From positions 1 to 34,340 of the forward strand of contig QLUI01000001.1 of NCBI GenBank assembly GCA_018725345.1: a DNA stretch of 34,340 nt. Reading direction: 5' to 3'. Source of the DNA: Bacillota bacterium. Lineage in GTDB: Bacteria; Bacillota; Dethiobacteria; Dethiobacterales; Dethiobacteraceae. Numbering within the stretch: the first letter of the stretch is position 1; each line of letters opens with the position of its first letter. Shown here piece after piece: positions 22,635 to 32,239 of the stretch. The notes under the pieces were generated by a model, which was not told where the DNA came from, did not search any database, and saw only the letters and a list, made by a program, of their open reading frames with translations. The position numbers and the translations under genes are program-made.

Positions 22635-23371
22635 TGGGGGCGAAACGGATGAGTGGAACTAACCTCTGGTTAAAATACCAGGAGACAAAAGCAGAAGGAG
22701 TGCACAGCGAACTGGTGAGTCAATACCTGCCGCTTGTACGTTTGCACGCAGGGCGTCTGGCGTTGGGCTTGCCGGCCCATGTTAATCGGGACGACCTGGT
22801 GCAAGCCGGCGTGCTGGGACTACTAGAGGCTATGCAGCGTTTTGACCCAAACCGAGGTGTTCGCTTTGAGTCTTTTGCCACACTGAGGATCCGCGGCGCT
22901 ATGCTGGATGAGCTACGGCGTTTGTGTTGGCTACCCCGCTCTCTGCTGCGCCAGATGCGGGAAGTGGATCGTGCTTCCCAGGCTCTGGCTGCTAAACTAG
23001 GTCGAGAGCCGGAGCTTGAGGAAGTGGCAGATTGCCTGCAGATAGCGGTGGAGCAGCTGCGGAAAACAGTAACGATGATAAACTGCGGCACAGTGTTGTC
23101 TATCGAGGACACCTTGTTTGCCGCGCCGGAGACAGAGGGCCAAGAAATAGCGACACTGGATCATTTGATTGTCGCCGAGGAAAAAGAACGCTTGGCTGCG
23201 GCCATAAAGGAATTACCGGAACGTCAGCAACAACTACTAGCCCTTTATTATCAGGAGGAGCTGACGCTGAAGGAAGTAGGGTTGGTGCTAGGAGTATCGG
23301 AATCCCGGGTTTGTCAGTTGCATGCGCGCATTGTAGCGCGCCTGCGCTCCGCCCTGACAGAAGAGTCATAG
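22631..23371 (+). CDS. fliA: Flagellar sigma-28 factor FliA/SigD
   Basis: Region 2: DDLVQAGVLGLLEAMQRFDPNRGVRFESFATLRIRGAMLDELR. Region 4: LTLKEVGLVLGVSESRVCQLHARIV. The more likely start is ATG 22649 (MSGTNLW). Confidence 0.9.
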   Translation: MMGAKRMSGTNLWLKYQETKAEGVHSELVSQYLPLVRLHAGRLALGLPAHVNRDDLVQAGVLGLLEAMQRFDPNRGVRFESFATLRIRGAMLDELRRLCWLPRSLLRQMREVDRASQALAAKLGREPELEEVADCLQIAVEQLRKTVTMINCGTVLSIEDTLFAAPETEGQEIATLDHLIVAEEKERLAAAIKELPERQQQLLALYYQEELTLKEVGLVLGVSESRVCQLHARIVARLRSALTEES

Positions 23372-23622
23372 ACCCCACGGCTAAAGCCGGGGGCTTAGCA
23401 TTTGCCCCACTATGACCAGCCTAAGTCCCACGAGGACTACGTTTACTTAGCCATGACACCCTGGGGTGCTTCTCCAGCTCCAGGCACTGTCGTCCGGACT
23501 AAACAGCGAGTAGGGGTTGTACGAGCAGTGCCCCGGACGCGACAAGCTAAGCTAACATTGGCGAGGAGAGACTAAAAATAGCGTTACCGGCCCCTTAAGG
23601 GGCTCCGAAAGGAGAGAAAAAG
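23372..23622 (+). ncRNA. Candidate IscB omega-RNA (HEARO-type) scaffold; exact 5' end and guide unknown
   Basis: 251 nt with no plausible ORF directly upstream of iscB, which is where IscB omega-RNAs are encoded. It holds many complementary segments: 23404-23409/23462-23467; 23421-23426/23445-23450; the interleaved pairs 23483-23489/23526-23532 and 23491-23497/23533-23539; and the palindrome gccccttaaggggc at 23590-23603. Confidence 0.6.
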
Positions 23623-24927
23623 ATGGCTGTATTCGTACTGGACAAGCACAAGAAACCACTAATGCCCTGCACTGAAAAACGGGCTAGGCTGTTACTCGAA
23701 CGCAGACGTGCGGTGGTGCACAAGATGTCGCCTTTTACTATCCGGCTCAAAGACCGGACGGTAGAACAAAGCCAACTTCAACCGTTACGTCTGAAGTTAG
23801 ATCCAGGTAGCAAAACTACCGGTATCAGCATCTTACAAGAAGCAGTGTCCGAGAAAGCAGATGTCGTCTTTTTGGCGGAGCTGCGCCACAAGCCGGGCAT
23901 CAAAGAGAAGCTGGCCGACAGAAAGACACAGCGGCGGAATCGTCGCAACCGCAAAACACGCTACCGCGAGAAACGGTTTGATAATCGTACCAGGCCAAGC
24001 GGCTGGCTGCCGCCGTCGCTTCAAGCCCGGGTTAATCAGGTCGAGAATACCGTAAACAAATTGCAAAAGCTGTTGCCCATAACCGCAATCAGCACCGAAC
24101 ATGCCAAATTCGACACACAACTTATGCAAAACCCTGCCATTGCCGGTATCGAGTACCAGCAAGGCGAACTTTTAGGTTACGAGGTTCGGGAATATCTATT
24201 AGAAAAATGGAAACACAAATGCGCCTACTGCCGTACCGCCGACACACCGCTGGAAATAGAGCACATTACCCCCAAATCAAGGGGCGGCAGTGACAGAATC
24301 AGCAACCTAACATTAGCCTGTCGCCCGTGCAACCAAGCCAAGGGCAACAGGACGGCAGAAGAGTTTGGCCACCCTGAAATCCAAAAGCAGGCCAAATTAC
24401 CGTTAAAAGACGCGGCCATGATGAACGCCACGCGGTGGGCATTGTTTAACAGGCTAAAAGAAACTGGCCTCCCGGTCGAGTGCGGTACTGGCGCCAGAAC
24501 CAAGAAACAGCGTATAGAACATAAACTCCCGAAAACCCATTACTACGATGCGTGTTGCGTGGGTGCCGGCACCCCGGCAAATCTTGCGATCAGGCAAAAG
24601 TATGTTTCCATTTGGAAAGCGATCGGCAGAGGCACCAGGAGGATGTGCAACACAGACAAATATGGTTTTCCGAAAGGTCACAGACAGCGCAAGAAGAATC
24701 ACTTTGGTTTTCAGACAGGCGACATCACAGCAGCGGCTATTCCTCGCGGTAAATATCAGGGCATTCACACTGGCCGAGTAGCGGTTAGAACGAGTGGATG
24801 CTTTGATCTAAAAGACATTGCCGGCATCCGTATTTGTCAAGGTATCGGCCACAAACATTTTCGGCTGCTGCAAAGAGCCGGCGGATGGCATTATGGCAAA
24901 GCGAAAATAGCATATAAAGGAGAATGA
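23623..24927 (+). CDS. iscB: IscB RNA-guided nuclease (PLMP, RuvC-I, Arg-rich bridge helix, RuvC-II, HNH, RuvC-III, C-terminal domain)
   Basis: 434 aa. KPLMPC at aa 11-16. LKLDPGSKTTG (D60). RKTQRRNRRNRKTRYREKRFDNR. ISTEHAKFD (E159). HNH insert: CAYC...EIEHITPKSRGGSDRISNLTLACRPCNQAKGN. KTHYYDA (H306, D309). SD AAAGGAGAG at 23608-23616. Confidence 0.85.
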   Translation: MAVFVLDKHKKPLMPCTEKRARLLLERRRAVVHKMSPFTIRLKDRTVEQSQLQPLRLKLDPGSKTTGISILQEAVSEKADVVFLAELRHKPGIKEKLADRKTQRRNRRNRKTRYREKRFDNRTRPSGWLPPSLQARVNQVENTVNKLQKLLPITAISTEHAKFDTQLMQNPAIAGIEYQQGELLGYEVREYLLEKWKHKCAYCRTADTPLEIEHITPKSRGGSDRISNLTLACRPCNQAKGNRTAEEFGHPEIQKQAKLPLKDAAMMNATRWALFNRLKETGLPVECGTGARTKKQRIEHKLPKTHYYDACCVGAGTPANLAIRQKYVSIWKAIGRGTRRMCNTDKYGFPKGHRQRKKNHFGFQTGDITAAAIPRGKYQGIHTGRVAVRTSGCFDLKDIAGIRICQGIGHKHFRLLQRAGGWHYGKAKIAYKGE

Positions 24928-24990
24928 CGAAGGCGCGCTTCCTCCCCATAGATGAATCCAGGGGCTTTTTGCGCTACGTCTGGTGAAGAG

Positions 24991-25446
24991 ATGGTATACT
25001 TGCTTTTGTTAATCGGCTTAGCGCTGGCTTTGCTGGCTTCCGCTAAACTGGTTCAAAAAAATAGAGAGCCGTTTGACGACGCTCTGCGTGCTGAGGTAAG
25101 CAAACCACTAAATCGCGAATTGGTGATTCTGTTTGAGTTGCAGGAATCGGTGGAAGCTGCTCTGGCCGAGCTGGACGAAAAAAATCAGGTTTTTCAGCAT
25201 TTGGTGTCTCGGTTGGAAAAGCAGCGTGCGGCAGTAGAGCACAGGTTGCAGCAATTAGAGAGGCTCATCAGCCGAGCGGAAGCTGTGTTGAAAAACCCGG
25301 TAGCTCGGGAGGCACCGGAAGGAGATCGCTATCGCCGTGAACAAATCTATCGGTTGGCAGACCAAGGCAAAGATGTGGCGGATATGGCGGTGGAGCTTGA
25401 ATTAGGACGGGGTGAGGTGGAATTAATACTCGGCTTGCGAAAATAG
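24991..25446 (+). CDS. Membrane-anchored coiled-coil protein with a C-terminal HTH-like segment (positional analog of B. subtilis swrB; DUF2802/DUF6115-like)
   Basis: MVYLLLLIGLALALLASA TM segment, then a coiled coil, then IYRLADQGKDVADMAVELELGRGEVELILGL. I start it at ATG 24991, where the homology to the cheA-upstream repeat ends. The ORF-track start at 24952 lies inside the IscB element end. Confidence 0.6.
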   Translation: MVYLLLLIGLALALLASAKLVQKNREPFDDALRAEVSKPLNRELVILFELQESVEAALAELDEKNQVFQHLVSRLEKQRAAVEHRLQQLERLISRAEAVLKNPVAREAPEGDRYRREQIYRLADQGKDVADMAVELELGRGEVELILGLRK

Positions 25447-31540: not shown

Positions 31541-32071
31541 ATGGTGTCGGCAATGAATAACCTGGTAGGGAAAACGGAGGAGCAGCCCCAGGATGAATTG
31601 CAATTGGTAGTTTTTTTTCTGCAGGGTGAGGAATTTGCTGTGGATATCCAAAAAGTACGGGAAGTGTTGAAGTTGCCTCCGATTACGCGCCTACCGCAAT
31701 CCTTGGATTTTATTGAGGGTGTCATTAATTTGCGGGGAGAGGTTATCCCTGTGCTTGATCTGCGCAAGCGATTCCGTCTCAATGATGCGGCGAAAGGCGA
31801 TAAAGCGCGGATCATTATTGTGGAGATTGAGGAAGGTATGGTTGGTCTGATTGTAGATTCAGTTACTGAGGTGCTCCAGCTCAACCCCTCTGCAATCGAG
31901 CCGCCGCCGCGCCGGCTTGCCGGCACGAGGCCTGAGTTTATTTCCGGTGTGGGCAAGTTGGGGAATCGCCTGATCATTATTTTGCATCTGGAAAAAATTC
32001 TTTCTACCGAGGAACAGTTGGAATTGGAGCATTTGCAACTAGCGGAATCGGAGAGAGTTGCCCTAAACTGA
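31541..32071 (+). CDS. cheW: Chemotaxis coupling protein CheW
   Basis: LQLVVFFLQGEEFAVDIQKVREVLKLPPITRLPQSLDFIEGVINLRGEVIPVLDLRKRF is the canonical CheW pattern. The start is ATG 31541 or 31553; the ORF is open from 31508. Confidence 0.9.
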   Translation: MVSAMNNLVGKTEEQPQDELQLVVFFLQGEEFAVDIQKVREVLKLPPITRLPQSLDFIEGVINLRGEVIPVLDLRKRFRLNDAAKGDKARIIIVEIEEGMVGLIVDSVTEVLQLNPSAIEPPPRRLAGTRPEFISGVGKLGNRLIIILHLEKILSTEEQLELEHLQLAESERVALN

Positions 32072-32080
32072 TAGACTGAG

Positions 32081-32239
32081 GTCAAGGTATCGGCCACAAA
32101 CATTTTCGGCAGATGCCTTGAGCCGGCGGCTGGCATTATGGCAAAGCGAAAATAGCATAGAAAGGAGAATGACGAAGGCGCGCTTCCTCCCCATGGATGA
32201 ATTCAGGGGCTTTGTGCGCTACGTCTGGTGAAGAGATGG
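32081..32239 (+). mobile_element. Truncated, degenerate copy of the IscB element 3' end (last ~92 nt of iscB plus ~67 nt of right end)
   Basis: By eye, a gap-free alignment to 24836-24994 with about 10 mismatches in 159 nt. The iscB reading frame here reaches a premature stop (QGIGHKHFRQMP*). Confidence 0.85.

Follow-up and report, generated by a model that had tools for sequence, protein, structure and literature searches.

Between cheW and cheA in the flagellar and chemotaxis gene cluster of a Dethiobacter-like Bacillota MAG, positions 32081–32227 very probably represent what is left of a second, decayed copy of an IS200/IS605-family IscB element, the intact copy of which occupies positions 23365–24982 of the analyzed stretch of 34,340 nucleotides (the window). 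What survives is the TnpA-defined left end, comprising the last 92 nt of iscB, a putatively TnpA-bound hairpin, and the terminal ...GCGCTACGTCTG. As read from the sequences, the inserted DNA is an IscB-element end, and the Shine-Dalgarno (SD) sequence and the start codon following it are a property of the host.

Two copies of the element end in the window

Using a repeat search and MAFFT within the window, an ungapped pair of 159 nt was obtained (32081–32239 and 24836–24994) with 149 of 159 positions identical (94%), in agreement with the gap-free match with about 10 mismatches described in the original prediction. The homology begins with GTCAAGG and stops at ...GGTGAAGAGATGG, while the flanking DNA is unrelated on both sides in the MAFFT alignment. 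The repeat comprises the last 92 nt of iscB and 67 nt beyond the iscB stop. Translated in the iscB frame and compared with the intact copy, the second copy reads GQGIGHKHFRQMP-stop-AGGWHYGKAKIA-stop-KGE-stop; its premature TGA bears out the earlier view of a truncated, dead element end downstream of iscB. The following features, all on the + strand, were assigned:

23349–23364 (+): inferred guide of the omega-RNA, 16 nt of the fliA 3' end just outside the element, deduced from the HEARO start and the published IscB architecture
23365–24982 (+): full-length non-autonomous IscB element, GTCATAG...CGTCTG; left terminus from copies elsewhere, right terminus from 10 insertion sites
23365–23576 (+): omega-RNA scaffold HEARO (RF02033); cmscan 130.9 bits, E = 3.7e-27, full-length model
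23623–24927 (+): iscB ORF, 434 aa; Pfam RRXRR 1.3e-68 and HNH
24944–24965 (+): LE hairpin of the full copy, CCCCATAGATGAATCCAGGGGC, with an A-C mismatch in the stem
24983–24993 (+): TAM GTGA, spacer AGAG, and ATG of the DUF6115 gene; GTGAAGCTATGG in relatives; start-codon offset 8
32081–32227 (+): relic, 147-nt solo TAM-proximal end (LE in the TnpA sense) of the IscB element, between cheW and cheA and missing in nine relatives
32081–32172 (+): dead iscB 3' remnant covering the 30 terminal codons; the translations show a premature TGA and the ancestral family TAG stop
32189–32210 (+): subterminal LE hairpin of the relic, CCCCATGGATGAATTCAGGGGC, with a G-T mismatch in the stem
32228–32238 (+): host DNA with TAM GTGA (32228–32231), 4-nt spacer, and cheA ATG (32236–32238); bases shared with the element-free loci L001–L004, L127, and L129–L132 (L numbers denote loci from the searches)

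In the full copy, HEARO lies directly upstream of iscB on the same strand and extends to the element terminus; the match covers model positions 1–211 and its 130.9 bits compare with a gathering score of 83. Besides the RuvC-like RRXRR domain, the iscB product carries Pfam HNH_5 and HNH domains (1e-13 to 1e-14). The family stop codon TAG has changed to TAT in this copy (24923–24927), which adds four codons (YKGE) relative to the homologues of 430 aa. The ancestral TAG is still present in the relic, and in family members iscB ends with ...AAAATAGCATAG. GTCATAG, the left terminus, adjoins two different left flanks, and contig L020 begins exactly there. In the window, these first omega-RNA bases now provide the stop of fliA, thereby adding one Ser to its product (...LTEES instead of ...LTEE). 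No Y1 transposase ORF was noticed among the eight ORFs of the window scanned against Pfam. Mobility of the element in its source organism is at most putative.

The relic is 91–94% identical to 24836–24982, and the two copies differ at 10 of 147 positions. It has kept a genuine terminus and TAM junction matching the empty sites, while the other end and the omega-RNA are gone. It has no intact nuclease gene, its iscB remnant has two stops, and no Rfam match was found in it even at E ≤ 1.

Terminus, TAM, and hairpin of the element family

Further copies were collected from IscB homologues with 82–91% identity, from a metagenome pattern scan (64 loci with 7 genuine ends, the remainder being chance matches), and from one further homologue. 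A viral scan for the element end gave two matches, both by chance, and the more distant IscBs P0162 and P0148 (68–69% identical) showed no recognisable LE of the same type and added no sites. On the right, the family ends with ...GCGCTACGTCTG, and GTGA follows ...CGTCTG at 10 independent sites (twice in the window, L016, L017/19, L031, L064, L077, L109, L155, and L005). The sequences after the terminus were GTGAAGAG (window, twice), GTGATGAG, gGTGAGTT, GTGAATGG, gGTGATAG, GTGACTTC, GTGAAGTC, and GTGAGAAA, always with GTGA; a slightly different subfamily has GTCAGTGAGG in this place. From these junctions, GTGA on the iscB strand, corresponding to TCAC and often TTCAC in TnpA orientation, is the TAM, host DNA required beside the element.

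Some of these copies have unusual surroundings. In L016–L019, two left and two right flanks are combined around an identical IscB element (SAF with ParA, SAF with X, Y with ParA, and Y with X), either by recombination between two copies or as assembly chimeras across the repeat. In L006–L013, a TnpB gene on the opposite strand lies just past the IscB element end, at a distance of about 150 nt from iscB, seemingly as an IS605-family insertion that is nested or adjacent; it is missing in L005 and L014. The flank of L005 contains Mu-like capsid genes.

The hairpin CCCCATGGATGAATCCAGGGGC is located about 18 nt inside the terminus. In 185,579 species-representative genomes, the hairpin 22-mer was found at 42 loci belonging to many phyla, none of the contigs having both hairpin copies of the window. 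By tblastn, no IscB was detected in these 42 loci except for an 18-aa relic in L031, and therefore we read the end as a TnpA/LE feature rather than an IscB-specific one. At several of the loci, the direct neighbor is a Y1 TnpA gene in divergent orientation (PF01797, E = 1e-44 to 1e-46), with a longer ORF beyond. In L037, this position is occupied by a confirmed TnpB, and the one longer ORF scanned beside the TnpA gene in L053 (482 aa) had no Pfam match. Across the loci, the hairpin is followed by a short GC helix and then by G^GTAA, G^GTCA, or G^GTGA (the caret marks the junction), and hairpin copies within one genome diverge right after this G^GTNA-type motif. GTAA is the complement of TTAC, the classical target of IS608.

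The stem covaries: the combination GG-C (TGGA/TCCA) was found 27 times, GA-T (TGAA/TTCA) 14 times, and a mismatch 6 times, so that the pair is kept in 41 of 47 distinct sequences; the stem of L155 is TGGC/GCCA. For the outer helix, covariation was judged qualitatively from single sequences, the MAFFT alignment being out of structural register. Single-sequence folding of the two ends in the window was no better than that of shuffled sequences (z = −0.2 to −1.2), a result that fits the stem mutations but does not speak for the hairpin. Judged by its conservation in 42 loci, its position beside TnpA genes, and the compensatory stem states, the subterminal hairpin at the TAM-proximal end of the full copy belongs to the type recognized by Y1 TnpA. 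According to Meers et al. (bioRxiv 10.1101/2023.03.14.532601), the RE of an IscB element borders the omega-RNA and its LE borders the TAM; the elements are also oriented like the gene upstream, and GstIscB has the TAM TTCAT. What had been called the right end is indeed an element end, but by transposase terminology it is the left end (LE).

Two groups of hairpin loci have a different context. In cyanobacteria (L021, L027, L032, L041, L044, L058, and L061), the same 22-nt hairpin lies within GATTTTGGATTTTAGATT-type simple repeats and without the outer GC helix and the GGTNA terminus. In Legionellales (L035, L036, L054, and L062), each genome has several copies of the hairpin with ...ATTTTG^GTAA termini; these loci lack a transposase or nuclease ORF in their vicinity and resemble miniature or solo ends.

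Comparison with element-free relatives

Ten contigs of relatives were retrieved via their CheA proteins (76–93% identical; 89–93% for the nine closest), and in all ten the element is absent from both the cheA and the DUF6115 site. In the nine closest relatives, all Dethiobacter-like contigs, the cheW–cheA junction reads ...ccctaaacagatagactgag^GTGAA(G/A)AGATGGA... (in short, gactgag^GTGAAGAG), and the distance from the cheW stop to the cheA ATG is 14 nt. In the window, the junction reads ...gatagactgag^GTCAAGG...CGTCTG^GTGAAGAGATGGA. Comparing empty and filled sites, the DNA inserted at cheA is 32081–32227 only, i.e. 147 nt, and a target-site duplication is absent. Placing the element boundary at the end of the shared 159 nt was therefore wrong. 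The last 12 nt of the repeat (GTGAAGAGATGG) are native host DNA including the ATG and GGTGA except for its first G, and element-free relatives have gag^GTGAAGAGATGG ahead of cheA and ggga^GTGAAGCTATGG ahead of the DUF6115 gene (in longer form ...cacggga^GTGAAGCTATGGTATAC). The homology seems to reach ATGG because the two host ribosome-binding sites were already identical at 10 of 12 positions (GTGAAGnnATGG). A homology block may thus overrun the boundary of a mobile element when target sites are alike, and the host origin of SD and ATG becomes visible through the empty-site comparison only.

At the fliA–DUF6115 site, a host spacer of 49 nt present in the relatives is missing (window 23359–23371 compared with L004 1720–1790). 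Both edges of the deletion, the fliA stop on one side and the junction of the insertion on the other, carry the 4-nt repeat GAGT, which could explain the spacer loss. The flank after the full copy (24983–24994) is GTGAAGAG as at cheA, whereas nine of nine relatives have GTGAAGCT (AG versus CT). Measured against the relatives' sequences, the insertion on the fliA side is not a clean TnpA product and requires extra events; an empty fliA–DUF6115 junction reading gaagaGTGAAGAGATGG would mean a clean TnpA insertion. In three relatives (L001–L003, 1388–1846), the same spacer contains a different insertion of 459 nt with GGGCGGGTTTGAAACCCGCCC-type palindromes, and this intergenic spot seems to be prone to insertion.

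Origin of the relic and history of the two copies

Insertion in this family takes place directly beside the TAM, 5'-GTGA on the iscB strand and (T)TCAC in TnpA orientation, and leaves no target duplication. At cheA, the TAM is the 3' half of the native SD sequence GAG^GTGA. The insertion therefore cut the SD in two, and the final G of the element re-created GGTGA at a distance of 8 nt from the host ATG, which stayed unchanged. The DUF6115 gene downstream of fliA is a parallel case, and GGTGA presumably continues to be used as SD. Later, a deletion reaching from the initial GTCA of the cheA copy to an internal GTCA (24836–24839) would have removed the omega-RNA and most of iscB and left an immobile solo end behind. 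The left edge of the relic, GTCA, matches the four initial bases of the element, and the adjoining host flank is intact. A relic beginning with the element's own GTCA suggests an internal deletion of a once-complete copy, and from the sequence we infer a deletion between the terminal and the internal GTCA as its simplest origin.

Both window copies share derived states, among them GGAGAAT and an extra T-run before GCGC, which are absent from L077, the closest outside copy; they are therefore intragenomic sisters. Both copies have decayed: the hairpin stem of each has its own mismatch, the TAG stop is gone from the full copy, and 6 clustered changes as well as the premature stop are found in the relic. 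A Peptococcaceae MAG from a serpentinite site contains a further solo-LE relic of the family (L031, about 1690–1796; also L082 and L111), which has kept no more than 18 codons of the IscB 3' end and is located upstream of a promoter-like region.

The shared AG in the flanks allows for an additional event, namely that the two copies underwent gene conversion or ectopic recombination which overran into the 10/12-identical flanks, rewrote GTGAAGCT to GTGAAGAG at the fliA site, and thereby copied 8 nt of the cheA flank. Consistent with this, the fliA site has CT in each of the nine relatives and the AG of cheA in the window, the difference does not extend beyond the similar part of the flanks (up to ATGG), and the copies are sister direct repeats 7.2 kb apart. 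However, two substitutions in a diverged lineage would give the same result, and with 10 differences in 147 positions between the copies any conversion must be old. We regard such an event as possible but rather unlikely, and it would alter the history only, not the identity of the relic.

Another conceivable origin is one in which the 147-nt piece was never part of a full copy at cheA. In that case, an aberrant TnpA event using the internal TGAC (the complement of GTCA at 24836–24839) as pseudo right-end cleavage site would have mobilized a mini-element, which then integrated beside the cheA TAM. Precise single-strand excision and integration would be expected to give a relic with edges like these: exactly GTCA at one, the genuine terminus followed by the TAM at the other, and host flanks left intact. 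The internal GTCA, however, has no adjoining RE hairpin, a second 147-nt unit was found neither in the genome nor in the metagenome scans, and the relic in L031/L082/L111 has a different, non-GTCA breakpoint, which favors ordinary deletions. We therefore consider a mini-element improbable and retain the internal deletion of a complete copy.

Two further routes were rejected. Off-target homing of IscB from cheA to the fliA spacer, for which a protospacer-side similarity of 10/16 would speak, does not agree with the position of the mismatches next to the TAM, as judged by eye, and excision with extra flank via an alternative cleavage site does not agree with CCAT, which is unlike the TAM. The 16–20 nt to the left of the two TAMs, i.e. 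the would-be protospacers (window 32061–32080 and L004 1754–1775), are alike at 10 of 16 positions when anchored at the TAM; the purine-rich composition of ribosome-binding sites may suffice for this.

Start codons and ribosome-binding sites of the downstream genes

ATG 24991 and ATG 32236 are the true starts of the DUF6115 gene and cheA, respectively, as previously proposed. All close CheA orthologues and a 100%-identical public record have 664–666 aa and the N-terminus MDTSEY, and DUF6115 orthologues have 151 aa and are called from the corresponding ATG in most relatives. The N-terminal extensions shared in the ORF track, already suspected to be spurious, originate from an ATG inside the element hairpin, and the same artefact is present in gene calls on L016 and L155. 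For annotation, the 13-residue N-terminal extensions of CheA and the DUF6115 protein, as well as similar public gene calls, are thus artefacts of a transposon-hairpin ATG.

The original prediction had offered two explanations for the position of the element ends: insertion immediately against start codons, or an outward-facing translation initiation region in the element end, from which the genes would take their SD and possibly their ATG. The second is favored by the identical 12 nt GGTGAAGAGATGG after both copies and by GGTGA being completed by the last G of the element. It is contradicted by the empty sites, since SD and ATG are present in nine of nine empty cheA sites and in all empty DUF6115 sites, where element-free relatives carry GAGGTGAAGAGATGG and GGGAGTGAAGCTATGG, respectively. 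The element stops at ...CGTCTG, with 8 nt remaining to the ATG, and no more than one G of the SD comes from it. Moreover, other sites differ after ...CGTCTG^GTGA (TGAG, CTTC, AGTC, and ATGG), and promoter and terminator scans of both element ends found nothing, including no outward promoter-like site. A donated initiation region is thus refuted; copies in which ...GGTGAAGAGATG accompanies the element to unrelated sites would contradict the host ownership of SD and ATG. That the approximately 67 nt after iscB are themselves host DNA, for which only their presence upstream of two host genes speaks, can practically be dismissed, as they are lacking in all relatives at both sites and are found after iscB in unrelated contexts.

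Insertion against start codons holds as a tendency. At 4 of 9 independent sites, a start codon opening a substantial ORF follows 8–11 nt after the terminus (the DUF6115 gene and cheA in the window, a ParA/TadZ-like gene with GTG in L016, and a 313-aa gene with ATG in L109). Two further sites have a start within 50 nt, and at a tenth site (L155) a small ORF starts 0–12 nt away. Outside the window, 2 of 7 sites have a start codon at 8–11 nt. As background, GTGA at −8 to −11 was counted in 12 of 80 called genes of the relatives, equal to 2.15% of GTGA/TCAC sites. For the sample of 9–10 sites, two of which prompted the test, the binomial p is 2.5e-5 for 4/9, 5e-4 when the window is counted once (3/8), and an estimated value of about 0.01 without both window sites (2/7); with a looser background (any start codon opening 100 aa or more), p is 0.005. 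By eye, TnpA/TnpB elements with a GTGA TAM (L026, L039, L049, L053, and Sutterella loci) showed no start-codon adjacency.

GTGA forms the 3' portion of the extended SD sequence of Firmicutes (GGAGGTGA), and insertions tend to adjoin start codons because the obligatory TAM overlaps SD sequences. We read the adjacency as the result of this overlap and of the retention of harmless co-transcribed insertions, not as a built-in function of the element; selection is presumably the reason why insertions at SD sites are retained. A more far-reaching idea, which we consider speculative and unlikely, is that a clade with an SD-mimicking TAM (G^GTGA) homes preferentially to ribosome-binding sites in operons as a 'safe-harbour' strategy. 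There, it would profit from host read-through transcription, the terminal G would rebuild the SD, and insertion and excision would be near-neutral; 8 nt of one ribosome-binding site might even have been carried to another gene by recombination between copies. Should a large survey confirm the adjacency, the reported orientation bias of IscB elements would gain a concrete explanation at the level of the target site, and a TAM (about NTGA) would be suggested for a compact IscB clade.

Comparison with known systems

The left end of IS608/IS605 elements has the target TTAC, a subterminal imperfect hairpin, and a Y1 TnpA. The window element resembles it in having a flanking target motif of 4 nt that is not duplicated and a hairpin located about 18 nt inward of the terminus, and elsewhere the same 22-nt hairpin is located beside Y1 TnpA genes with the flank GTAA (= TTAC). 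In contrast to IS608/IS605, the cargo in the window is IscB and not TnpA/TnpB, and both window hairpins have a stem mismatch.

The IscB element of Geobacillus stearothermophilus (ISGst) likewise has an omega-RNA at one terminus, iscB, and a hairpin-bearing end abutting the TAM; it has no tnpA in cis and is co-oriented with an upstream host gene. The window TAM (T)TCAC is close to the Gst TAM TTCAT, but it ends in C instead of T, resulting in GTGA on the gene strand, which overlaps the Firmicute-type SD. Also unlike ISGst, one of the window copies is reduced to a solo end. With IS200/IS605 solo ends and PATE-like miniature elements, the relic shares the form of a short non-coding remnant with one TnpA-binding-type hairpin; unlike PATE-like elements, it has one end only, should be immobile, and is single-copy in the data searched. 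HEARO (RF02033) is full-length and high-scoring in the full copy and absent from the relic. Overall, the locus adds one more case to a known type, an IS200/IS605 IscB element together with a solo left end formed by ordinary mobile-element decay.

As a further feature of the window, three tandem copies of an AT-rich unit of 51 nt (100%, 100%, and 84%) were found at 1775–1927, at the start of the flagellar cluster.
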